Positions 2,429 through 13,866 of a stretch of DNA of 13,866 nt are shown piece by piece. This stretch comes from a virus (Duplodnaviria > Heunggongvirae > Uroviricota > Caudoviricetes): IMG/VR virus record IMGVR_UViG_2690316086_000003, positions 1 through 13,866 of that record; one strand, given 5' to 3'. The position numbers and the translations under genes were made by a program. Positions within the stretch are counted from its first letter, which is position 1; the number at the start of each line of letters is the position of its first letter. The notes beneath the pieces are model-generated. The model saw nothing but the letters and a program-made list of their open reading frames with translations. It made no database searches and was not told where the DNA came from.

Positions 2429-2905
2429 TTAAGTTCCTGTCTTGGTGATGTTCTGGCTTTTCCGTTTTGATTCTTGATTTTTCAGATAGTTAGCTACCTT
2501 CATTTCCATTGCGGCAATGTAGGCGCGAACGTCATGATCAACCCAACTAGGCTCCGTAGCATTTCCAGATAAGAGGAAAGCCACAATTGCTCTTTTTTCA
2601 TCAGAGGCGGCTTGATAAAGGCTGTTTATGTCTAAAAGTTCACTTTTTGTATCTGAAGTGGATGGGGTTGGTATGGGGTATTCGTTAAGCCCCCAATGCT
2701 CTGGACCAACCACATCAGAAAAGAAACGCCATAGTTCTGGAAGTTTGTCTTTACTTATCGAACCTTTCTTAATCCAGTCATGGATTGATGGTGGTTGGAC
2801 TTTGAAATGACGTGCGATTTCCGCCTTTGATTTGACGGCTCCTGATGCAATTTTTTTGTTAATGGCCTGCTCTATCGCTCGGCCTAAGTCTTTACCACTA
2901 AGCAT
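2429..2905 (-). CDS. racR: prophage repressor, RacR-like (CI-type HTH repressor)
   Basis: 158-aa ORF MLSGKDLGRAIEQAINKKIASGAVKSKAEIARHFKVQPPSIHDWIKKG... with an HTH near residues 24-47. AGGAGA RBS upstream. Divergent from a Cro-like gene. Length and sequence match my memory of Rac prophage RacR. Confidence 0.85.
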   Translation of the reverse strand: MLSGKDLGRAIEQAINKKIASGAVKSKAEIARHFKVQPPSIHDWIKKGSISKDKLPELWRFFSDVVGPEHWGLNEYPIPTPSTSDTKSELLDINSLYQAASDEKRAIVAFLLSGNATEPSWVDHDVRAYIAAMEMKVANYLKNQESKRKSQNITKTGT

Positions 2906-2958
2906 TGCTTAATAGTCTCCTATGCGCATCGCGTTAGGCAATCCCTACTCTCGATGTG

Positions 2959-3002
2959 TTAGGCATAGCCTATTGACAATTGTATTAGGCTAAGCCTAAT
3001 AT
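2959..3002 (+). promoter_or_regulatory. pR-like rightward sigma70 promoter with repressor operator inverted repeats
   Basis: -35 TTGACA (2973-2978), 18-nt spacer, -10 TAATAT (2997-3002). Operator inverted repeats TAGGC-ata-GCCTA (2960-2972) and ATTAGGCT-a-AGCCTAAT (2984-3000). The block 2959-2979 is the exact reverse complement of 2314-2334. Confidence 0.55.
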
Positions 3003-3029
3003 TGTTGCGTGTTTTTTGGAGTTCATTCG

Positions 3030-3353
3030 ATGAAAAAAGATAACTATTCATTCAAACGAGCTTGTGCTGTTGTCGGTGGGCAATCAGCAATGGCTAGGCT
3101 TTTAGGTGTATCTCCTCCAAGCGTAAATCAATGGATCAAAGGTGTACGTCAGTTGCCTGCTGAGAGATGTCCTGCGATTGAACGAGCAACAAAAGGTGGT
3201 GTCCTGTGTGAAGAACTTCGTCCTGATGTTGATTGGACATACTTACGACGCTCGTCATGTTATTCGCAGAATATGTCGATGAAGCAACCAAATGACGAAA
3301 ACGATCATACCCGAAGCATCAAGAGGCAAATGATTCATGAAAATCAAACATGA
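3030..3353 (+). CDS. ydaS: Cro-like HTH regulator, YdaS-like
   Basis: ATG at 3030 with GGAG 8 nt upstream; the track ORF begins at an upstream GTG. HTH segment GGQSAMARLLGVSPPSVNQWIKG. Divergent from the repressor gene, in the Rac-type order racR-ydaS-ydaT. Confidence 0.7.
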   Translation: MKKDNYSFKRACAVVGGQSAMARLLGVSPPSVNQWIKGVRQLPAERCPAIERATKGGVLCEELRPDVDWTYLRRSSCYSQNMSMKQPNDENDHTRSIKRQMIHENQT

Positions 3354-3762
3354 GCACATCCGCATGGCGATGAATGCCTGGGCATACCCTGATGGTGAGA
3401 AAGTTCCTGCAGCTGAAATAGCCCGGACTTATTTCGAACTGGGGATGACGTTCCCTGAACTGTACGACGACAGCCATCCGGAAGCCCTGGCCCGTAATAC
3501 ACAGAAAATTTTCCGTTGGCTGGATAAAGACACCCCTGATGCTGTTGAAAAAATTCAGGCTCTGTTACCGGCGATCGAAAAGGCAATGCCGCCTCTGCTG
3601 GTGGCCCGTATGCGCAGTCACAGCTCTGAGTATTACCGGGAGATTGTCGAACGGCGGGATCGGCTGGTGAAGGATGTCGACGATTTTGTTGCGTCAGCGG
3701 TTGTTTTGTATGACCAGATGAATCGCGGCGGCCCGGCAGGGAATGCTGTGGTGATGCACTAA
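3337..3762 (+). CDS. ydaT: YdaT-like protein (partner of YdaS in Rac-type prophages)
   Basis: ORF of about 140 aa, MKIKHEHIRMAMNAWAYPDGEKVPAAEIARTYFELGMTF..., overlapping the 3' end of the ydaS-like gene by 17 nt. Length and position match YdaT as I recall it. Confidence 0.7.
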   Translation: MKIKHEHIRMAMNAWAYPDGEKVPAAEIARTYFELGMTFPELYDDSHPEALARNTQKIFRWLDKDTPDAVEKIQALLPAIEKAMPPLLVARMRSHSSEYYREIVERRDRLVKDVDDFVASAVVLYDQMNRGGPAGNAVVMH

Positions 3763-3784
3763 AAGCACGGTGTTCGGGGGTTTT

Positions 3785-4747
3785 ATGAGCAGCAAGCTTC
3801 ATGGTCTTGTCTGGGAAGGGTGCGCCTTCACCGGCATGATCTTATCCAGGGTGGCGGTTATGGCCCGTCTTGCAGACTACAGCAATGACGAGGGTGTGTC
3901 ATGGCCTGCCATTGAAACTATCCGGCGTCAGATCGGTGCAAGAAGTGAATCCACAGTGAAATCGGCTATTGCAGAACTGGCGAAAGAGGGCTGGCTGACG
4001 AAGGAAGAGCGTAAGGTCGGTGGGCGTAATGTAAGCAATATCTATCGGCTTAATGTGGAAAAACTCGAAGCAGCAGCTGCGGCGGCGCGTGAGTCATATA
4101 AACCGAAAAGAAAAATTAGCCCGGCAAAAAATGACCAGTTAACAGTTGACCCGTCAAATATTGCCCCCTCAACGGTTGACCCGTCAAATTTTGATGGATC
4201 AACTGTTGATAAAAAACTGCCGATTAGGGGGGCGATGATTGACCCCGATCCGTCAGTATTAAAACCTGATCCGTCAGATAAAAGATCTTCTTGTCCGGAC
4301 GCTTCGCAACCGGACCCGCAGACGGCTGAACAGGATTTTTTAACCCGACACCCTGACGCGGTTGTGTTCAGTGCGAAAAAACGCCAGTGGGGAAGTCAGG
4401 AAGATTTGGTGTGCGCACAGTGGATCTGGGGACGAATCGTGAGTCTTTACGAGCAGGCGGCCAGCTATGATGGCGAGATCACTAGACCGAAAGAACCCAA
4501 CTGGACAGCATGGGCCAATGACGTTCGCACAATGCGGATGCTGGATGGCAGAACTCACAGACAAATTTGTGAAATGTTTGGGCGTCTCCAGCGGGATTCG
4601 TTCTGGGTAAAAAACATCATGAGTCCGGCAAAACTCCGGGAAAAATGGGATGAACTGGTTATCCGCCTGGGGCGTTCGCCTGCGCAGCGTTGCGTGAATC
4701 ACATTTCTGAACCGGACACTGAAATTCCGCCGGGCTTCAGGGGGTAA
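3785..4747 (+). CDS. phage replication initiator, lambda O-like / YdaU-like (N-terminal HTH domain, low-complexity linker, C-terminal domain)
   Basis: ATG at 3785 preceded by a GGGGG run; the track ORF starts at an upstream GTG at 3770. The N-terminal region (...SRVAVMARLADYSNDEGVSWPAIETIRRQIGARSESTVKSAIAELAKEGWLTKE...) looks like a replication-protein HTH. The central linker is encoded by the direct DNA repeats listed below. The position after the cro-like genes matches the replication module. Confidence 0.7.
   Translation: MSSKLHGLVWEGCAFTGMILSRVAVMARLADYSNDEGVSWPAIETIRRQIGARSESTVKSAIAELAKEGWLTKEERKVGGRNVSNIYRLNVEKLEAAAAAARESYKPKRKISPAKNDQLTVDPSNIAPSTVDPSNFDGSTVDKKLPIRGAMIDPDPSVLKPDPSDKRSSCPDASQPDPQTAEQDFLTRHPDAVVFSAKKRQWGSQEDLVCAQWIWGRIVSLYEQAASYDGEITRPKEPNWTAWANDVRTMRMLDGRTHRQICEMFGRLQRDSFWVKNIMSPAKLREKWDELVIRLGRSPAQRCVNHISEPDTEIPPGFRG
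4138..4277. repeat. iteron-like repeat cluster inside the replication-initiator gene (putative ori)
   Basis: Exact 15-bp direct repeat GTTGACCCGTCAAAT at 4145-4159 and 4175-4189, each containing the palindrome TTGAC-cc-GTCAA. Related palindrome TCAAC-t-GTTGA at 4199-4209. GATCCGTCAG repeated at 4247-4256 and 4268-4277. GTTAAC at 4138-4143. Confidence 0.45.
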
Positions 4748-4787
4748 GTGTTAATTTCTGGTCATGAGGTAACTTTCAGGAGGGCTT

Positions 4788-5210
4788 GTGGCAAAAGTTT
4801 TTACACAAGAAGAGCGGGAAAAAATTAAAGGGCAGGTTGTTGAACTCGTACGCCAGAGTGGGCGCGAGACGTTACGACAACTGGAAACTAAAACTGGGGC
4901 AACAAGATATCTGATGAGCGTTCTGGCCAGAGAGCTGGTTGCCAGTGGCGATGTATACAATTCTGGCTACGGGTTATTCCCGTCTGAACAGGCTCGTAAA
5001 GACTGGCAAAATGCCCGCAAAAAACTCTCAAGGGCAAAGCTGAAGAAACCATCTGCGGTTGATCCGGACCTTATCTGGTCATTACCAGATGGCGAAATAC
5101 GCCGCTACGACAGGCGTCTGAACATAATCTGTCTCGAGTGCCGGAAGAGCGAAGTTATGCAGCGCGTACTGGCGTTTTATCAGGGGAATTTTGAGGAGGT
5201 GGTGCGGTGA
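4788..5210 (+). CDS. hypothetical protein (140 aa), replication-module position
   Basis: GTG start with AGGAGG 5 nt upstream. Product MAKVFTQEEREKIKGQVVELVRQSGRETLRQLETKTGATRYL.... Stop overlaps the next start (GTGA). Confidence 0.6.
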   Translation: MAKVFTQEEREKIKGQVVELVRQSGRETLRQLETKTGATRYLMSVLARELVASGDVYNSGYGLFPSEQARKDWQNARKKLSRAKLKKPSAVDPDLIWSLPDGEIRRYDRRLNIICLECRKSEVMQRVLAFYQGNFEEVVR

Positions 5211-5461
5211 GTGAATCAAAATGCCAGGTTAATGGCAACAAGATAGAACCATGTGCAGCACTGGCAAAGTCCCTTGAGCATGATGCTGAATACACGATGC
5301 GAAAAGGTCTGCTGATATACAAAATCTGGAATGAGAGTTTAACTCGCGGTCCTGATTTTGTGATGTTGCGTTCCGGTGAATTTTCTAAATTACCAGTTCG
5401 GGTTTCATTTTGTCCGTTCTGTGGTGAAAGTCTGAAAACGTGGGAGAACAGAAATGAATGA
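5207..5461 (+). CDS. hypothetical small protein (84 aa) with Cys pairs C6/C16 and C69-P-F-C72 (possible zinc ribbon)
   Basis: GTG start overlaps the upstream stop, with GAGGAGG 7 nt upstream. The four Cys are arranged C-x9-C ... C-x2-C. Its 3' end overlaps the next start (ATGAATGA). Confidence 0.55.
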   Translation: MSESKCQVNGNKIEPCAALAKSLEHDAEYTMRKGLLIYKIWNESLTRGPDFVMLRSGEFSKLPVRVSFCPFCGESLKTWENRNE

Positions 5462-5765
5462 AATTAAAGAAATACCAGTAGTACGTGATGAATATGGCTG
5501 CTGGACGCATCCTGAATATGAAAAATTCTGTGACGGTCGGGAATATATTTCAACGGAAGAGTTTAACGCCTGGATGGAGGAAAATAATCTTCAATACGTC
5601 CTCTGCTTCAGAGATGAAGGATGTGCTGACCTTGATGCGTGTGATGCTGATATTTCTGCATGGGAACCGGAACGACCAGAGGGCAATGGATGGTTTATTG
5701 GTTCAATACATGACACCGAAGATGGCCCGGTTTGTGTATGGCTGAGAAATAAGGCCGAAGCATAA
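5454..5765 (+). CDS. hypothetical Cys-rich acidic protein (103 aa)
   Basis: ATG overlaps the preceding stop. Product MNEIKEIPVVRDEYGCWTHPEYEKFCDGREYISTEEF.... It is the last gene before the AT-rich island. Confidence 0.6.
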   Translation: MNEIKEIPVVRDEYGCWTHPEYEKFCDGREYISTEEFNAWMEENNLQYVLCFRDEGCADLDACDADISAWEPERPEGNGWFIGSIHDTEDGPVCVWLRNKAEA

Positions 5766-6070
5766 AGGCTATAAACCGACTAACAACTAAATACTGAAGA
5801 TTTAAATCAGAAACGATTTTTATTAAATCCTTAACCGGAGGGATTCTGCACCCTCAGAACATCAGGAGGCCGTCTGAAAGGGCGGAACAGATAATGCTTA
5901 CGTTGAAACATTTTATCGACATACCAACATGGTTAGCCGTCATTGCTTTTGTTAAAATACACATCCACTTTTCTGTGCAATGTTTAACCACTGGTCATAT
6001 CAAATGGCATTCATGCGAACCATGATATAGAATCATGGCTTGAGAGAGTCGATGAAAGCGCAACTATGGT

Positions 6071-6649
6071 ATGAGAGACATTGATGTAAGAAAGGCTGTG
6101 CATGCCAAGATTCTGAGAGATCATCATAAAGATCCTGACACCCTAATCATTGATGAGTTTACGATGAATCTAGGGGCTAGCAGAGCTGATATAGCAGTGA
6201 TCAATGGGCTTATACATGGTTATGAGTTGAAGAGCAAGAGTGATAACTTGCTCAGATTACCAGCGCAGGTGCAACATTACTCATCAGTGATGGATAAAGT
6301 AACTTTGGTTGTCTCTGATTGCCATCTTTATGATGCTTTAAGCATAGTTCCATCATGGTGGGGGATAAAGCAAGTTACGCAAGGTGCACGGCAAGGTATC
6401 CATTTAAAAACAATTCGAACTAGCAAGTTGAATCCACAAGTGGACAAACTTTCCTTAACAATGCTTCTTTGGAAAGATGAATTGCTTTCCCTATTAAGTG
6501 ATGTAGGGGAGCTACAGAATTTGAAAAATAAACCTAAACGCGTCTTATGGTCAAAACTCGCCAATAGTATGGATGTTGGCGAGCTTCGTGAAGCTGTTCG
6601 AGTTAAACTTAAAGCCCGTAAAGAGTGGCGAGTTGCTCAACAACCTTAG
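6071..6649 (+). CDS. hypothetical protein with PD-(D/E)xK-like nuclease motif; recalled as 'sce7726-family-like'
   Basis: 192-aa ORF with AT-rich codon usage. Motif arrangement E29 (IIDEF), D40 (RADIAVI), E52-L-K54 (GYELKSK), which is the classic order for the restriction-endonuclease-like fold. Family assignment is from memory only. Confidence 0.7.
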   Translation: MRDIDVRKAVHAKILRDHHKDPDTLIIDEFTMNLGASRADIAVINGLIHGYELKSKSDNLLRLPAQVQHYSSVMDKVTLVVSDCHLYDALSIVPSWWGIKQVTQGARQGIHLKTIRTSKLNPQVDKLSLTMLLWKDELLSLLSDVGELQNLKNKPKRVLWSKLANSMDVGELREAVRVKLKARKEWRVAQQP

Positions 6650-7706
6650 TTATGTGATGGTTTTGCCCAATCCTACGCCATACCTCTGGGCTACCAAATT
6701 TATAGTTACCAGAGGGATTGGCTTTGTAGGCTTGATACTCGTTTGCATAATATTCTATGTCTCTATCTCCCGCACAGAATGTAGGCCCTGAATATTCTCG
6801 ATGAGCAAGAATATCCTCACTATGTTTACCATATTGTTCATAACCAAAGCGATTAGCTACTCTTCCTCGAAATACCCAAAAGTCATTATCTCCAGAGTAT
6901 CTGACGCTGGCAGATACGCTAGGGAATCGCGTCGAAAGCCTATTAAAGTCGGGGTGCTGTACTCCATAATCACTATAAATCACATTTCTGGCAAGTTCTT
7001 TTCTATTCATTAAACTCTGCCATAAAATCCACTCGATTCGAGGTTGAGAATATAGACCAACAGAAATATCACTGAGATCTGTAGGAAATGAACCCCCAGA
7101 AAGAATCACTTTTCTGTATTCATTGAGGTGCGCCAGATTGTTTATCAATCCCATTGCCAAAGTATATAGTTCGCCGGAATTAATTTTATCCTCGGTTAAC
7201 TCATCTCTTAAGTCAATAATTATATCAATATTTGATAAAGGAATTCCCAGATGATTAATGTAATGCGTTATTAATTGTGGGTTAACCAGATCTAACGTGG
7301 TTAATCTCAAGCATATTTCATTCTGCATTAATTCATCAATCGCTCTTTTATAGTTAGATGGGCGAGTTGGTGAACTGACAGGAATAACTCTTATCCCCAT
7401 ATCTCTAACTTGATTAACCGCATTTATTATAGGGTAATGATCTTCAGGAGAAATAAAATGCTCTTCAATTAATAATCCATCAATATAAACACCTTGCATA
7501 TCTGAGCAAGATTTTGAGACTTTCTTTCCGAACTCTATAAGAGTCTCGTTATAACTCTTTAAGGCAATACCTGAATCAGGGTCAATTGGCACTGGTTCAA
7601 TTTCGAGTAATGGCAAAATTTTTGATTTCTTTTCAATGGATAGCTGCGATAAAGCTGATAACTCAGAACGTTTCGCTTTCAGAATAGGAATATATGAAAT
7701 TGTCAT
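6609..7706 (-). CDS. hypothetical protein, recalled as 'beta protein / sce7725-family-like' (function unknown)
   Basis: 365-aa ORF, MTISYIPILKAKRSELSALSQLS..., AT-rich, with AAGG about 8 nt upstream of the ATG. Convergent with the 192-aa gene and overlapping its 3' end by 41 bp. The N-terminal Y-x-P-I-L-K-x-K motif matches my recollection of this family. Confidence 0.8.
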   Translation of the reverse strand: MTISYIPILKAKRSELSALSQLSIEKKSKILPLLEIEPVPIDPDSGIALKSYNETLIEFGKKVSKSCSDMQGVYIDGLLIEEHFISPEDHYPIINAVNQVRDMGIRVIPVSSPTRPSNYKRAIDELMQNEICLRLTTLDLVNPQLITHYINHLGIPLSNIDIIIDLRDELTEDKINSGELYTLAMGLINNLAHLNEYRKVILSGGSFPTDLSDISVGLYSQPRIEWILWQSLMNRKELARNVIYSDYGVQHPDFNRLSTRFPSVSASVRYSGDNDFWVFRGRVANRFGYEQYGKHSEDILAHREYSGPTFCAGDRDIEYYANEYQAYKANPSGNYKFGSPEVWRRIGQNHHITKVVEQLATLYGL

Positions 7707-8263
7707 GTTAATACCTTATACAGAATCAATTAACAATTAATGGTTCTTCGGACATTGAAATTTATATCGCAAAAATTGGCAAACTCTCCTCGACTACTCA
7801 CTTGTGGGTATCCTGGCGTAAAAGGAATGACTTGGCAATACCCGGTGTGATCATAAGTCATTGAAAATGATCATTTTTATCAGTCTTTCTTCCATGATGA
7901 ATGCTAATGCCATTTGATTTGTTGAGGTGAAAACTGTTAAAAATCAAAACGATGTAATTGAAATGAACGTTCGGTAGCATTCACGCTTTAAATGTTTCTT
8001 TTGTGCTGATTGGATGAATTTGGGTCACTTATGATGAGAGATGTTGCAGGAAAAGAAGTTGGCATTGATCTATTGGATAGTTAGAATTGCTGCGGGTGCT
8101 TGAGGCTATCTGCCTCAGGTATGAACACCAAAAGGCAGATAGAGAAAAGCCCCAGTTAACATTACGCGTCCGGCAAGACGCTTAACATTAATCTGAGGCC
8201 AATTTCATGCTTTGCACATGTAGGTTAGCCTCTTACGTGCCGAAAGGCAAGGAGAAGCAGGCT

Positions 8264-8419
8264 ATGAAGCAGCAAAAGGCGATGTTAATCGCCCTGATCG
8301 TCATCTGTTTAACCGTCATAGTGACGGCACTGGTAACGAGGAAAGACCTCTGCGAGGTACGAATCCGAACCGGCCAGACGGAGGTCGCTGTCTTCACAGC
8401 TTACGAACCTGAGGAGTAA
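8264..8419 (+). CDS. hokD: Hok/Gef-family small membrane toxin (51 aa)
   Basis: Product MKQQKAMLIALIVICLTVIVTALVTRKDLCEVRIRTGQTEVAVFTAYEPEE, with one transmembrane helix and the LCEVR signature. GGAG lies 9 nt upstream. The track ORF at 8207 is an in-frame upstream extension. The sequence matches HokD/RelF as I recall it. Confidence 0.8.
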   Translation: MKQQKAMLIALIVICLTVIVTALVTRKDLCEVRIRTGQTEVAVFTAYEPEE

Positions 8420-8487
8420 GAGACCAGGCGAGGGAGAAATCCCTCGCCACCTCTGATGAGTCAGGCATCCTCAACGCACCCGCACTT

Positions 8488-8515
8488 AACCCGCTTCGGC
8501 GGGTTTTGTTTTTTC
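8488..8515 (+). terminator. rho-independent terminator downstream of hok
   Basis: Stem AACCCGC (8488-8494), loop TTCG, stem GCGGGTT (8499-8505), then a T-rich run TTTTGTTTTTT. The hairpin GGCGAGGGA-gaaa-TCCCTCGCC at 8427-8448 lies just upstream. Confidence 0.7.
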
Positions 8516-8586
8516 CTGGCATTCTGGTTTACAATTCGCACGTCAGCCTGAACACCTGACACCTGCTGCGCCAGCAGAGAAAACAG

Positions 8587-8859
8587 ATGGTGCACAAAAC
8601 CAAATTTCACAATTCTGATACCGACCTTGCCATCCGGCATGGGCGGCGTTCACACGCATTTAAAACCGACTGGTACCAACACCCATCATGTACTGAAGAA
8701 CAGGCCGAATGGCTAATTCATAACTACCGCAGACGCGGATACGAGATTAAGAAAGCCCTCAGCCTCGATTATCGTCACTGGATAATCTATGTCAGGCTCC
8801 CTTATTCCGAACGCTCACCGCGCCCATCCCGCACATACCAGCAACGGATCTGGAGGTAA
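8587..8859 (+). CDS. hypothetical protein (90 aa), Qin-type Rem-like position
   Basis: ATG at 8587. Its stop TAA (8857-8859) lies inside the RBS-to-start region of the DUF968 gene. It sits between hok and the DUF968 gene, like rem in the Qin prophage as I recall it. No confident homology. Confidence 0.5.
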   Translation: MVHKTKFHNSDTDLAIRHGRRSHAFKTDWYQHPSCTEEQAEWLIHNYRRRGYEIKKALSLDYRHWIIYVRLPYSERSPRPSRTYQQRIWR

Positions 8860-8860
8860 C

Positions 8861-9910
8861 GTGCGGATATTACTTCGACCTGTTCTGGTACCGGAACTCG
8901 GGCTGGTGGTCCTTAGGCCGGGCCGTGAATCCATGCAAGTATTTCATAACCCTCGAGTGCTGGTGGAGCCTGAACCGAAAAGCATGCGCGGTCTGCCGTC
9001 CGGAGTCGTCCCTGCCGTTCGCCAGCCGCTGGCGGAGGATAAATCATTTCTGCCATTTTTCAGCGATGAGCGGGTGATTCGTGCTGCTGGCGGCGCTGGG
9101 GCACTGTCTGACTGGCTGTTGCGTCATGTCAAATCCTGCCAGTGGCCTCATGGTGACTATCATCACAGTGAAATCGTCATACATCGTTACGGTACCGGCG
9201 CGATGGTGTTGTGCTGGCACTGCGACAACCAGTTGCGTGACCAGACATCCGAATCACTCGGGCAACTTGCTCATCAAAACCTGTCAGCATGGATGATTGA
9301 CGTCATACGCCATGCAATGAATGGCACGCAGGAGCGGGAATTGTCGCTGGCTGAATTATCCTGGTGGGCGGTCTGCAATCAGGTGGCGGACGCGCTTCCG
9401 GAGGCAGTATTACGTCGTTCTCTGGGGTTACGTGCGGAAAAAATCCGCTCCTTGTACCGCGAAAGCGACATCGTACCGGGAGAGCAGACCGCCATCAGCA
9501 TACTGAAACAGCGCACAAAAAATCTTGCGCCGCTGCCTCACGCCCACCAGCAACAGAACCCACCACAGGAAAAGACGGTGGTCAGCATTGCCGTTGATCC
9601 TGAGTCTCCGGAATCTTTCATGAAACGACCTAAACGTCGCCGCTGGGTTAACGAGAAATACACACGCTGGGTGAAGACTCAGCCGTGTGCGTGTTGTGGT
9701 AAGCCAGCCGACGATCCCCATCACCTGATTGGTCATGGTCAGGGCGGAATGGGGACAAAATCTCACGATATTTTCACGCTACCGCTGTGTCGGGAGCATC
9801 ACAACGAGCTTCATGCGGATCCGCTGGCGTTCGAAGAAAAGCATGGTTCTCAGGTTGATTTAATTTTTCGTTTTCTTGATCACGCCTTTGCAACTGGCGT
9901 GCTTGGGTAA
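8861..9910 (+). CDS. DUF968-type prophage protein (YdfU-like) with C-terminal Cys/His cluster
   Basis: GTG at 8861 with GGAGG 4 nt upstream; the track ORF 8789..9910 extends further upstream in the same frame. C-terminus ...QPCACCGKPADDPHHLIGHGQGGMGTKSHDIFTLPLCREHHNELH is an HNH-like or zinc-binding motif. Confidence 0.7.
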   Translation: MRILLRPVLVPELGLVVLRPGRESMQVFHNPRVLVEPEPKSMRGLPSGVVPAVRQPLAEDKSFLPFFSDERVIRAAGGAGALSDWLLRHVKSCQWPHGDYHHSEIVIHRYGTGAMVLCWHCDNQLRDQTSESLGQLAHQNLSAWMIDVIRHAMNGTQERELSLAELSWWAVCNQVADALPEAVLRRSLGLRAEKIRSLYRESDIVPGEQTAISILKQRTKNLAPLPHAHQQQNPPQEKTVVSIAVDPESPESFMKRPKRRRWVNEKYTRWVKTQPCACCGKPADDPHHLIGHGQGGMGTKSHDIFTLPLCREHHNELHADPLAFEEKHGSQVDLIFRFLDHAFATGVLG

Positions 9911-9922
9911 AAGAGGTGACTG

Positions 9923-10282
9923 ATGCTCATAGATTTGGTTTTACCTTACCCGCCGACGGTGAACACTTACTGGCGACGCCGTGGCAGCACATATTTTATC
10001 TCGGAGGAGGGAAAGCGTTATCGCCGGGCTGTGGCGCTTATTGTTCGCCAGCAGCGGCTGAAATTAAGCCTGTCCGGAAGGCTGGCGATAAAGATTATTG
10101 CAGAGCCACCGGATAAGCGCCGTCGTGATCTGGACAATATCCTGAAAGCACCGCTGGATGCGCTGACGCATGCCGGACTTCTCATAGACGACGAGCAGTT
10201 TGATGAAATCAATATTGTGCGCGGTCAGCTCGTTTCTGGTGGGCGGCTGGGCGTGAAGATTTACAAAATTGAAAGTGAGTGA
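9923..10282 (+). CDS. rusA: RusA-type Holliday junction resolvase
   Basis: 119-aa ORF MLIDLVLPYPPTVNTYWRRRG...PPDKRRRDLDNILKAPLDALTHAGLLIDDEQ.... The RRRDLDN and DALT motifs resemble RusA. AAGAGG RBS with a 6-nt spacer. Confidence 0.8.
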   Translation: MLIDLVLPYPPTVNTYWRRRGSTYFISEEGKRYRRAVALIVRQQRLKLSLSGRLAIKIIAEPPDKRRRDLDNILKAPLDALTHAGLLIDDEQFDEINIVRGQLVSGGRLGVKIYKIESE

Positions 10283-10290
10283 GCATAAAT

Positions 10291-10845
10291 ATGATATACC
10301 CGGAAATTACAGGCAAAAGCGGTGAGCATTTACGCCTGAAAACGCTGGAAAGTGTCTGGATCCAGGGGAAACTGCGTATGTGGGGGCGTTGGTCGTATAT
10401 TGGCGACGGTAAGACGGGAAATATGTTCAACCAATTACTGACCTCTAAAAAGCTGACAAAAACGGCAATTAACGAGGCGCTCCGGAGGATGAAAAAAGCG
10501 GGTCTGGACAAACCTGAACTTGAGGCTTTTTTGCGGGATATGATCAACGGCAATCAAAAAAGCTGGCTGGCACATTGTACCGATTCAGAGGCGTTAATAA
10601 TCGACAGGGTTATTGGTGAAGTACTGGCAGGTTATCCCGGGCTGCTCAATGTTCTGAGTCAGCGTTATGTGGGGCGGGGGATGACTAAGCGCAAAATGGC
10701 TGAACTGCTGAATGATGCACATCCGGAATGGAGTTTAAGAACCTGTGAAAGACGCATTGAGCATTGGCTAAAGGTGGCAGAATTTATTTTGTACAAACCA
10801 ATGGTTATGGCTTTTGGTATAGAGAAAAAAGTTATTGCTTTTTGA
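10291..10845 (+). CDS. putative late-gene antiterminator Q-like protein
   Basis: ATG at 10291; the alternative GTG at 10279 overlaps the rusA stop. Position after rusA and just before a short terminated leader. Loose resemblance to small Q/QuuD-type proteins (an MWGRWSY-type segment and basic C-terminal helices), from memory. Confidence 0.5.
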   Translation: MIYPEITGKSGEHLRLKTLESVWIQGKLRMWGRWSYIGDGKTGNMFNQLLTSKKLTKTAINEALRRMKKAGLDKPELEAFLRDMINGNQKSWLAHCTDSEALIIDRVIGEVLAGYPGLLNVLSQRYVGRGMTKRKMAELLNDAHPEWSLRTCERRIEHWLKVAEFILYKPMVMAFGIEKKVIAF

Positions 10846-10922
10846 CGTAAAAACTGCTTCAATTCCGGTAAGCTTCGCAAAGCTGTACCGCGAGGCGAAT
10901 AGCAGACATGGACATTTGAAAG

Positions 10923-10947
10923 AGCCCGCTTTTTGCGGGTTTTTTTA
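10923..10947 (+). terminator. rho-independent terminator (tR'-like) downstream of the Q-like gene
   Basis: AGCCCGC-ttttt-GCGGGT hairpin followed by a run of 7 T. It lies about 80 nt after the Q-like stop, as expected for a late-promoter leader. Confidence 0.65.
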
Positions 10948-11068
10948 TGACTGAAAAACGGCACGGGGCGTTAAATGCGCTGGTGGTTGCGAATACCGGT
11001 CTTTCTGCTTACTGGCTTTTTGGACAAGAGTTATTGGTATGTCACGTTAACCAAAAGGGAAAAAAGAC

Positions 11069-11266
11069 ATGCTAAAACAGCAGGATATGACAGAAACCGC
11101 CAGAGTGGTGTTTAATGAATTAAGCGTTACCGACCCGGCGACAGTCGGGGAGATTGCGCAGAATACTTACCTTTCACGCGAACGCTGCCAGTTAATACTG
11201 ACCCAGCTTGTTATGGCGGGTCTGGCAGACTATCAGTTCGGTTGTTACAGACGCCTTCCGCAGTGA
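11069..11266 (+). CDS. small winged-helix/HTH-like protein (65 aa)
   Basis: AAGGGA upstream of the ATG. The segment TVGEIAQNTYLSRERCQLILTQLVMAGLAD looks like an HTH. The stop sits in the loop of a terminator hairpin. Confidence 0.5.
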   Translation: MLKQQDMTETARVVFNELSVTDPATVGEIAQNTYLSRERCQLILTQLVMAGLADYQFGCYRRLPQ

Positions 11267-11276
11267 AGGCTTTTTT
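11253..11276 (+). terminator. rho-independent terminator
   Basis: GCCTTC (11253-11258), loop CGCAGT, GAAGGC (11265-11270), followed by TTTTTTATTT. Confidence 0.6.
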
Positions 11277-11416
11277 ATTTGTGGTAAATGGGCGGCTGGT
11301 GGGTGTTAGGGGCACCTACCAGCCATCTGCTCATGCGTTGGGTTCACAAGCAAACCTCAGGCCCACTGCTTTGCGCAAAAGCAGAATGAGCCTATCAGAG
11401 ACAGGCTTAATGATCC

Positions 11417-12493
11417 ATGCTTAATACTGTAAAAATATCCAGTTGTGAGTTAATCAACGCTGATTGCCTGGAATTTATCCAGACCTTACCGGAAAACTCT
11501 GTCGATCTGATAGTCACAGACCCGCCATACTTTAAAGTGAAGCCCGAGGGCTGGGATAACCAGTGGAAGGGCGACGATGATTACCTGAAGTGGCTGGACC
11601 AGTGTCTGGCGCAGTTCTGGCGGGTGCTGAAACCTGCCGGAAGTCTTTACCTGTTCTGTGGCCATCGCCTGGCATCTGACATTGAAATCATGATGCGTGA
11701 ACGCTTCAATGTGCTGAACCATATTATCTGGGCGAAGCCGTCCGGACGCTGGAACGGGTGCAACAAGGAAAGCCTGCGGGCGTATTTTCCGGCCACAGAA
11801 CGCATTCTGTTCGCGGAACATTATCAGGGGCCGTATCGTCCGAAAGATGATGGCGATGAGGCGAAGGGCAGGGCACTGAAACAGCATGTGATGGCCCCGC
11901 TGATTTCTTACTTTCGTGATGCGCGTGCTGCTCTTGGGATAACGGCAAAACAGATTGCAGATGCCACAGGAAAGAAAAACATGGTGTCGCACTGGTTCAG
12001 TGCCAGTCAGTGGCAGCTACCGAACGAAAGCGATTATCTGAAATTACAGTCGCTGTTTGCCCGGGTGGCAGAAGAGAAACATCAGCGGGGAGAACTGGAA
12101 AAGTCCCATTACCAACTGGTCAGCACATACAGTGAGCTGAACCGGCAGTACATGGAACTGCTGAGTGAATATAAAAATTTGCGGCGGTATTTCGGTGTGA
12201 CGGTGCAGGTGCCGTACACCGATGTGTGGACGCATAAACCGGTGCAGTACTATCCAGGGAAACATCCGTGCGAAAAACCGGCAGAAATGCTGCGGCAGAT
12301 AATCTGCGCGAGCAGTCGTCCGGGTGACCTGGTGGCGGATTTTTTCATGGGTTCTGGCTCAACCATAAAAGCAGCTATGGCGCTCGGGCGTCGTGCAACT
12401 GGTGTTGAACTGGAGGCAGAACGTTTTGCGCAGACCGTTAAGGAGATTAGTCACATCCTTACATGCTCAATTGATGACGGGAAGGATGGATAA
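11417..12493 (+). CDS. orphan DNA N6-adenine methyltransferase (beta-class, DPPY motif) with a central inserted domain
   Basis: 358-aa ORF. N-terminal motif IV ...VDLIVTDPPYF..., C-terminal motif I ...DLVADFFMGSGSTIKAAMALGRRATGVELE.... An insert of about 150 aa lies between them. No adjacent restriction endonuclease gene is recognisable. Confidence 0.85.
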   Translation: MLNTVKISSCELINADCLEFIQTLPENSVDLIVTDPPYFKVKPEGWDNQWKGDDDYLKWLDQCLAQFWRVLKPAGSLYLFCGHRLASDIEIMMRERFNVLNHIIWAKPSGRWNGCNKESLRAYFPATERILFAEHYQGPYRPKDDGDEAKGRALKQHVMAPLISYFRDARAALGITAKQIADATGKKNMVSHWFSASQWQLPNESDYLKLQSLFARVAEEKHQRGELEKSHYQLVSTYSELNRQYMELLSEYKNLRRYFGVTVQVPYTDVWTHKPVQYYPGKHPCEKPAEMLRQIICASSRPGDLVADFFMGSGSTIKAAMALGRRATGVELEAERFAQTVKEISHILTCSIDDGKDG

Positions 12494-13715
12494 AGATATG
12501 GTCAGTTCAGGCTGTGAAGCAAGTAGACAGATAAGGCTGCAATAAAAACTGACAATAGTAAAATAGCTTTTTCCCAGGTAGTCATGAATACGATCTCTTA
12601 AAGCGCCCGCTGATACCAGCGGGCAATACATACTGGCATTAATGTTAAGTTCAGGGATAATTCATCGTATTTTGTGGTACGACGCTATCAATATTAATAA
12701 ACAGTATTTTTCATGTAAAATTTCTGTTTTTTTGATCTGATTCTCGTTTCCTGGGTTATGATGTTGTTGTGAACCATGCTGTTGAATGATAATGTTCGGG
12801 TATAAAATTGTTGCTGATATGTAGCGCAGTGAGCAGGTGGTATTTCTGTTGCTGAGTGTACGGATACAGTGCTTCCCTCCCTCAGCGGGGGGGCAGGTGT
12901 GCTGTGGTTTTAGAGACACCGGAAACGAGAATGATGCGGGTTTGCTGGTGCCGGGATAGAGTCGCCGGAGGTCATGACATAGAGCAAAAAAGGAATGTGC
13001 ATGCAAATACACACCTCTTCGGAGAGCTCTTCTTTATATGGATGAGCCTCAAGGTCAATAGTTTATCTGTTATGTATTCATATGTTGTTACTTATATAAT
13101 CCATACGGGCATATCATCAGTACACACATACTATTATGGCATTTTATTTTTGTTTTAACTGAATTCCCGGGGCACTCTTTTTGATTTCTGATAAGGAACC
13201 AGAATTTTCTGTTAAATGGTGTCACGTTGTAAATGGTTAATGGAAGCAGCTTATTATCCATAATCACACCTGAGTTAACAGGTGTGAGAATACTTCCGGG
13301 TGGCAGGAACACATCTGACTGATACCAGATTATCAACTTTATTTTACACCATACAGTTGAAAACGTTATTCCGCTTGATGGGCATATCACTGTGTCAATA
13401 ACTATCCATTCCATCTTTTAACCTTCTCGGTACACATTGCTTTCGATTGTTTTGCTAAAAATCATAGTCAATAAATCAGTGTAACTCATTGAAAAAGATC
13501 GTCTTCTTTGTCTTCCTGGGGTTTTCTTTTCTAATTTTGTATCACTTTGGTTCAAGTTGTTTCATTTTTTTGTAATACAAATTAGCAGGATGAGCGGGAA
13601 TATAAAAAAATCGGATGTTTTTGTAATGGATATTATTTTTTTGTAAAATAATGTATTTTTATTTAAATCTCTATCAGAAAAGAATTTATTGTTCCTTTAT
13701 ATGGTGGAAAAGGTC

Positions 13716-13866
13716 ATGGTATTTAAACACTACGATGTGGTCAGGGCGGCGTCGCCGTCAGATCTTGCGGAAAAGCTGACACAAAAACTGAAGGAGGGGT
13801 GGCAGCCATTTGGCAGCCCGGTGGCCATCACGCCTTATACTCTGATGCAGGCCATTGCGGCGGAAG
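13716..13866 (+). CDS. hypothetical phage protein, 5' part (continues beyond the window end)
   Basis: ATG at 13716 with GGTGG 8 nt upstream, after a very AT-rich promoter-like region. Translation MVFKHYDVVRAASPSDLAEKLTQKLKEGWQPFGSPVAITPYTLMQAIAAE... has no stop before the window end. Confidence 0.5.
   Translation, partial: MVFKHYDVVRAASPSDLAEKLTQKLKEGWQPFGSPVAITPYTLMQAIAAE

Follow-up and report, generated by a model that had tools for sequence, protein, structure and literature searches.

The 13,866-nt stretch of DNA analysed here (IMG/VR record IMGVR_UViG_2690316086_000003, called the window in the following) is a lambdoid prophage of Escherichia coli of the Rac/Qin type. The subject of this work is an AT-rich island in that prophage which carries two convergent genes, one for a predicted nuclease of the sce7726 / P4 cII family and one for a β protein. 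The pair is a conserved unit, and in most loci, across phyla, it occurs in this two-gene form. Both families are known as components of validated anti-phage systems; what is new is the bare pair, unaccompanied by Gop or by a HigB/Xre-peptidase pair. We estimate the probability at roughly 0.5 that the island is an autonomous two-gene anti-phage module, in which β would sense or regulate and the nuclease would execute. The two genes and the overlap between them are as follows.

6071..6649, plus strand: 192-aa predicted Mg-dependent PD-(D/E)xK nuclease, sce7726 / P4 cII family, with a helical C-terminal half
6609..7706, minus strand: 365-aa Beta_protein, P4 β / PD-λ-2 component C family, TIM barrel
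6609..6649, both strands: 41-nt antisense 3' overlap, nuclease K181-P192 and stop codon opposite β Q354-L365 and stop codon

The nuclease and the β protein

The initial annotation, which was made from the letters alone, had tentatively placed the 192-aa protein as sce7726-like, and profile searches bear this out. It matches NF033832 (sce7726_fam) with an E-value of 1.7e-56 and 191.1 bits, against a cut-off of 70, over model positions 1-183 of 184, and it matches the PADLOC hidden Markov model (HMM) 'cll' with E 2.4e-28. The current Pfam name of this small family is Phage_P4_cII (PF26915); the nuclease family comprises about 3,400 clusters at 50% identity (E up to 1e-10). The PD-(D/E)xK-like motif that had been noticed in the protein is present, E29, D40, E52 and K54 being invariant in a 41-sequence alignment, and the predicted catalytic set also includes Q66. 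The αβββαβ core of the PD-(D/E)xK fold, with the acidic/Lys motif on the central strands, is found as well, and the fold assignment is a confident one. P4 cII retains the same E/D/ExK/Q residues. Members of the family also occur as solo genes with no β nearby: in Myxococcus phage Mx4 (L003, 3992-4561), where the aligned catalytic residues are intact, and in Xenorhabdus koppenhoeferi (L014, 6001-6567), where the tblastn match is full-length with 58% identity.

The 365-aa protein matches PF14350 (Beta_protein) over its full length with E 3.8e-52, and the PADLOC PD-Lambda-2_C HMMs, likewise over the full length, with E 1.8e-41 (PDLC03983) and 1.7e-38 (PDLC03984); the P4-specific PADLOC 'beta' HMM gives an E-value of only 2e-4. 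The invariant polar residues of β are K12, E15, D76, R115, R134, D165, R223, D246 and R269, to which R240, R344 and H351 can be added. They sit at or just past the C-terminal ends of the strands, that is, on the canonical active-site face of a TIM barrel.

The protein had been labelled beta/sce7725-like, and of this double label the first half stands. Membership in sce7725 was rejected: the match to NF033831 has an E-value of 0.1 and 12.3 bits against a cut-off of 60, and it is confined to residues 5-39. The β genes of the Sorangium and Nannocystis loci fail the same model. What the weak match picks up is no more than the N-terminal β motif Y-x-P-x-L-K-x-K-x-x-E, a hint that the sce7725 proteins may be a distant sister branch of the β TIM barrels. 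The names sce7725 and sce7726 derive from adjacent genes of Sorangium cellulosum.

Conservation of the pair

The genomic survey was a scan with the nuclease alignment, using one genome per species; it gave relatives in at least 450 species representatives, of which the best 80 loci were kept. These belong to more than ten phyla and include Gamma-, Alpha- and Betaproteobacteria, Myxococcota, Acidobacteriota, Bacillota, Actinomycetota, Chloroflexota, bacteria of the candidate phyla radiation (CPR; Saccharimonadia, Komeilibacteria), Gastranaerophilales (Melainabacteria), Armatimonadota, Gemmatimonadota and Thermodesulfobacteriota. In 77 of the 80 nuclease-seeded loci β lies immediately downstream and is convergent, and two of the three exceptions stop at a contig edge.

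The viral survey was a β-seeded scan of IMG/VR. The wider β alignment (A4) has no stretch that is conserved enough for scanning and A3 was used instead, thus the viral sample is biased to the β subfamily of the window; about half of the 52 loci obtained are near-identical E. coli prophage copies. A convergent overlapping nuclease gene accompanies β in 49 of them; of the other three, two are truncated at a contig end and one is rearranged. The pair is found in the Gordonia phages Powerball and DumpsterDude too, in Powerball between a HicAB pair and a tyrosine integrase gene, the latter about 1 kb upstream of β, past three small open reading frames (ORFs). Among the plasmid records with β, 18 of 24 are annotated with an overlapping sce7726 gene, for example in Rhizobium lentis and Bacillus mycoides. 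The nuclease and β distance matrices are correlated (Mantel r 0.77, a value reached by 0 of 2000 permutations), although shared phylogeny would contribute to this figure.

Two observations on individual records belong here. A β/sce7726 pair 100% identical to that of the window is found at 36334-37428 of CP061267.1, an E. coli record of 171 kb that is listed as a plasmid; this could be either a phage-plasmid or a chromosomal contig that was wrongly assigned. Seven loci (L024-L029 and L033), in metagenome-assembled genomes labelled Bordetella parapertussis, Bradyrhizobium and Afipia, have an identical pair and identical flanks; probably one organism, or a contaminant common to them, has been binned under several names.

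Antisense overlap of the 3' ends

The 3' ends of the two genes overlap in 66 of 68 non-identical loci, by 11-158 nt (median 53). The length of the overlap is in all 66 overlapping loci 2 modulo 3, which corresponds to a single relative antisense frame, and the same holds for the 49 viral loci, for Powerball (89 nt) and for pairs annotated by RefSeq on plasmids (47 and 32 nt). To define the register we took two alignment columns as anchors, the conserved Lys codon in the C-terminal L-K-x-R motif of the nuclease and, in β, the codon of the invariant H351. The distance between them is exactly 45 nt in 57 of the 68 loci, independently of the length of the overlap, and the other overlapping loci deviate from it by multiples of 3. 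The overlap is unusual in that its single frame and its 45-nt register are shared by groups as far apart as Enterobacteria, CPR bacteria and actinophages. It follows from the fixed register that the conserved C-terminal segments of both proteins are coded, across phyla, on opposite strands of the same DNA.

We found no terminator and no unusual RNA structure in the overlap (fold z-scores between -0.2 and -1.4), consequently complementarity between the 3' ends of the two mRNAs is to be expected. The overlap may have a regulatory role; alternatively, it could be a ratchet, an arrangement which cannot be undone without harm to both proteins.

Possible function of the pair

We read the island as a defence module because its relatives are validated, the active sites are intact, the pairing is strict, and the context is mobile or variable. 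The bare β-cII core would then be prophage cargo of the superinfection-exclusion or abortive-infection type. According to this scheme the β TIM barrel would be the sensor or regulator, binding or converting a small ligand or a phage-derived cue at the conserved site on top of the barrel, and the cII/sce7726 PD-(D/E)xK nuclease would be the effector, which cuts nucleic acid once licensed. Each gene would be served by its own leader; converging transcription with no terminator in between would yield mRNAs with complementary 3' ends, and these would probably couple the expression levels of the two genes and keep the pair inseparable. That the pair can defend the cell by itself, and that sensor and executioner are distributed between the two proteins in this way, is what the homologies and the genomic context suggest to us.

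The relatives in question are two. The gop-β-cII system of P4 protects against λ and P1 (Rousset et al. 2022, PMC9122126); a passage of the same paper, which cites Ghisotti 1990, describes Gop as toxic without β. Cell death by gop-β-cII is triggered by the phage accessory gene orf184, which lies in the same accessory region as ral (bioRxiv 10.1101/2023.04.06.535777). PD-λ-2 (Vassallo et al. 2022, PMC9519451) consists of a HigB-like protein A, an Xre-peptidase B, which is toxic alone and is neutralised by A, and a protein C 'related to a P4 phage antitoxin', which is dispensable for the neutralisation and is required against λvir (PMC9519451).

Several points weigh against an autonomous defence function. 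The phenotypes on record belong to three-gene relatives, not to the bare pair, and since these relatives carry an extra toxin (Gop or PD-λ-2 B), the bare pair might be without a killing function. The tested PD-λ-2 clone (from ECOR42, genes at 229385-232009, insert 228989-232396) extends at most 396 bp beyond the genes, whereas an intact convergent nuclease gene takes about 540 bp, so the published PD-λ-2 defence works without the nuclease. The fold of β points to no specific function. The solo nucleases of Mx4 and Xenorhabdus make a plain pair of nuclease toxin and β antitoxin less attractive. A few loci border housekeeping genes (mnmE, rpoD). Finally, a promoter scan of the minus strand gave no consensus promoter for β.

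Among the alternatives, we consider it unlikely, although worth keeping in mind, that the pair serves its mobile element in another way, by addiction or stabilisation, or in the phage life cycle, where lysogeny control or DNA processing and repair, as by MmcB-like nucleases, would be conceivable. The historical name cII, which suggests lysogeny control, was given to a P4 gene whose region has been called non-essential, Gop and β were interpreted in P4 as a toxin-antitoxin pair, and one public source labels a homologue 'DNA repair protein MmcB-like'. Moreover, the solo nuclease of Mx4 lies in a co-directional run of genes whose products are all annotated as hypothetical proteins, and genes locked together by a fixed overlap would also be in keeping with a selfish addiction module. 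Against such roles, the pair is found in E. coli elements at three distinct positions, all of them cargo slots outside the core, and the relatives give measurable phage protection; its presence on plasmids and at chromosomal sites without phage context shows that it is not tied to one step of a life cycle. A further possibility is a scheme resembling restriction-modification (R-M), in which β would be a TIM-barrel enzyme that modifies nucleic acid or nucleotides and thus marks self DNA, and the nuclease would restrict incoming DNA without the mark. The convergent layout does mirror that of many type II R-M operons, and the likeness extends to the combination of a PD-(D/E)xK protein with a second enzyme-like protein in a tail-to-tail two-gene mobile module. 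The partner, however, is a TIM barrel which is not known to have a modification activity, not a methyltransferase dependent on S-adenosylmethionine, and there is no evidence of a recognition domain; we regard this scheme as rather improbable.

Another alternative is decay: a three-gene locus, gop-β-cII or PD-λ-2, could have been reduced to an inert remnant by the loss of its toxin. It is true that the island has neither Gop nor PD-λ-2 A or B, and an IS1 element lies beside the pair in phage Rac-SA53. On the other hand, both ORFs are intact and retain all family-invariant residues, the island is 99.8-100% identical among the genomes of Shiga toxin-producing E. coli (STEC) listed, and it is the two-gene form that prevails across phyla, Gop being confined to P4. 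With a pair so well conserved, we find it hard to believe in an inert remnant.

The defence reading can be extended to the whole family, a view which we put forward tentatively and which seems to us possible rather than probable. The pair would then be an ancient autonomous two-gene immune module, spread over more than ten bacterial phyla as well as their phages and plasmids, with β, a ligand-binding or catalytic TIM barrel, as a general infection sensor to which various executioners have been bolted: the resident PD-(D/E)xK nuclease, Gop in P4, or HigB/Xre-peptidase. The overlap with its fixed register would set the ratio of sensor to effector, acting through mutual antisense or transcriptional interference, and gop-β-cII and PD-λ-2 would be two decorated versions of one larger, unnamed family.

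If the bare pair defends alone, the defence catalogues would gain a sizeable family, what the β TIM barrel senses could be studied in a minimal two-protein model, and the retention of cII next to gop-β in P4 would be explained. The island marks a prophage cargo slot of STEC (O26, O103, O111), and it could influence which phages superinfect these bacteria.

The island and its slot in the prophage

The island region is 100% identical to that of E. coli O103 strain ML775 and 99.7% identical to that of phage Rac-SA53. The gene order that the NCBI annotation pipeline PGAP gives for the identical region is dicB, ydfC, racR, a helix-turn-helix gene, a YdaT-family gene, a replication gene, DUF977, two small hypothetical genes, 'sce7726 family protein', 'beta family protein', hokD, DUF968, RusA, DUF1133, a DNA methyltransferase gene and iraM. 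The features in and around the slot are listed here.

5216..8081, no strand: variable accessory slot between the DUF977 gene and the hok/sok module, from blastn against four prophages with other cargo
5886..6070, plus strand: non-coding leader of the nuclease gene, no ORF >45 aa, weak sigma-70-like site
7707..8081, minus strand: non-coding leader of the β gene, AT-rich (GC 0.352), no ORF >43 aa
8059-8087: strong promoter-like site
8094-8269: sok RNA (Rfam)
8264-8419: hokD

The claim that an AT-rich island with AT-rich codons is set in an ordinary backbone agrees with the computed composition. The GC content is 0.384 for 5766-8206 and 0.379 for 5920-8081, compared with 0.486 (2429-5206) and 0.512 (8421-12493) in the flanks, and GC at third codon positions is 0.36 in the gene of the 192-aa protein and 0.30 in that of the 365-aa protein, compared with 0.48-0.57 in backbone genes. 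The part specific to the β/cII pair is an AT-rich insert of 2.2 kb, approximately 5886-8081 (38% GC against about 50%).

It was also correct that the island has just two genes: the only non-nested ORFs longer than 45 aa are those at 6071-6649 (+) and 6609-7706 (-), and the remaining ones (up to 78 aa) are nested within the two genes. For a third gene we checked ORFs of at least 20 aa in both flanks, and none of them exceeds 45 aa. The flanks, which had been described as long AT-rich non-coding regions, are AT-rich and poor in ORFs, but the segment 8082-8206 does not belong to the island; it is part of the conserved hok/sok module, and there is a sharp junction at 8082 in the four comparator prophages. 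The weak sigma-70-like site in the leader of the nuclease gene is at 6004-6033 (ATGGCA-18-TAGAAT); promoter-like sites are not enriched over shuffled sequences. In phage Rac-SA53 (L158, 1650-2415) the IS1 element is inserted in this leader, flanked by an 8-bp target duplication, AAACATTT, and it could either silence or drive the nuclease gene.

Comparison with related prophages agrees with the earlier suggestion of a variable slot, since other cargo is found at the same place. In blastn against the four prophages with other cargo the match ends at 5192-5215 and restarts exactly at 8082. With the left limit of the slot at about 5216, the two small genes at 5207-5765 fall inside it. A 64-bp block at 5822-5885, about 94% identical, is common to prophages with different cargo in the slot (L005, L094), and the DNA on either side of it differs between prophages; the block could mark the edge of a module, or else be a recombination joint or a terminator.

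The cargo of the slot in other E. coli prophages includes genes for QueH, a SIR2-family protein, methyltransferases, an α/β hydrolase, and DUF7167, DUF4014 and DUF551 proteins. Because a SIR2-family gene fills the same DUF977-hokD slot in E. coli EC23HZZ201 (L095, 1340-2299), the slot suggests itself as a small hotspot for defence genes or other cargo in prophages of the Rac/Qin type. Of 5426 complete E. coli genomes, 93 contain the whole island, and the carriers listed are largely STEC of serogroups O26, O103 and O111; partial matches to the query, which essentially cover the hok/sok flank, are found in 4232 genomes.

Neighbouring genes and mobile context

All-against-all clustering of the neighbours across the 80 loci yielded the HigB/Xre-peptidase pair as the sole recurrent partner, in a minority of loci. 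A phmmer search with P4 Gop found no homologue in the window, in the 80 genomic loci or in the 52 viral loci. In 14 loci a PD-Lambda-2_B protein of about 400 aa (E 1.8e-150) is encoded upstream of β on the same strand, and in nine a PD-Lambda-2_A / HigB protein of about 110 aa (E 9.6e-41) precedes it, which indicates that natural operons of the PD-λ-2 type often have four genes and end in a convergent nuclease gene. There is no close upstream ORF on the same strand in front of 46 of 64 β genes. The other immediate neighbours are heterogeneous (integrases, primases, Rz, DUF3800), with single matches to Kiwa, Mza, dCTPase, dGTPase, type III methyltransferase and PDC. In E. coli, a second variant of the pair lies between Rz and Nu1 of another prophage, and a third is in an element with a P4-α-like primase, beside Abi_2, Fic and HNH genes.

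Pairs of HigB and ImmA/IrrE, similar to PD-λ-2 A/B, also occur on Acinetobacter and Paraburkholderia plasmids (L153, L154) with neither β nor sce7726, which indicates that the toxin-antitoxin part and the β-nuclease part are separable modules. Another plasmid, pAC1633-1 (NZ_CP059301.1; L155), carries in the region of about 70.5-83 kb an ImmA/IrrE gene (PD-λ-2 B-like) at 70522-71766, and an NDM-1 region separates it from a truncated β (residues 103-364) and an sce7726 gene at about 82.2-82.9 kb. It looks as if the carbapenemase transposon had inserted into a four-gene locus of the PD-λ-2 type.

Other features of the window

An Rfam scan of the window detected sok and DicF only, both outside the pair; the DicF antisense RNA is at 1183-1234 on the minus strand (75 bits). 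The genes dicB and ydfC, with related genes of the Qin/Rac division-inhibition cluster, are located upstream of the racR-type repressor gene. An orphan DNA methyltransferase gene (11417-12493) lies downstream of a Q-like gene, and a second AT-rich stretch at 13000-13866 (GC 0.33-0.37) contains iraM on the minus strand.

Comparison with known systems

The island had been proposed as a candidate for an undescribed defence-type system. The defence-type part of this proposal can be kept on grounds of homology and context, while 'undescribed' was an overstatement, because PGAP, the PADLOC HMMs and the depositors of Rac-SA53 already label both genes, the last as 'CII phage-like protein' and 'beta', and Pfam names the family of the smaller protein (PF26915). 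In our literature search the sce7726/β pair was not found as a system; 'sce7726' occurred in genome-description papers only, 'PF14350' returned nothing, and what a broader search by family name brought up was unrelated work on TGF-β and importin.

It is instructive to compare the pair with the P4 gop-β-cII system. Both families, β (PF14350) and cII (sce7726 / PF26915), are present in the two cases, the P4 gene order is gop (+), β (+), cII (-), thus β and cII are convergent as in the window, and both are mobile-element cargo in a hotspot. The differences are also clear. P4 has gop, coding for a 133-aa protein with two transmembrane segments, which is missing from the window; P4 cII is, with 264 aa, longer than the 192-aa protein and has a C-terminal extension of about 80 aa; and β and cII do not overlap in P4, where they are separated by a 27-bp gap with an annotated terminator. 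The β of the window is distant from P4 β, and for the nuclease the identity to the P4 cII region is 28% over residues 22-127.

With PD-λ-2 the closest link is β itself, whose best matches are the PD-Lambda-2_C HMMs, and the natural operons (e.g. L023 and L156) often continue with a convergent overlapping sce7726 gene. The island lacks component A, the HigB-family toxin, as judged from the ORF check and from the PADLOC scan of the two proteins, and it also lacks component B (Xre helix-turn-helix plus M78/ImmA peptidase). Conversely, the definition and the published tests of PD-λ-2 concern three genes and do not include the nuclease. As to the sce7725/sce7726 pair of NCBIfam, the 192-aa protein is a full-length member of sce7726_fam, but its partner is not a member of sce7725_fam.

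The DefenseFinder and PADLOC models of gop_beta_cll and PD-Lambda-2 each need three genes. Neither model should therefore fire on the window, in which one or two of the three components are present. Perhaps the most interesting by-products of this work are the phylum-spanning overlap with its fixed antisense register and the unification of gop-β-cII and PD-λ-2: these two systems, which have been catalogued separately, share one core that is far more widespread than either of them.

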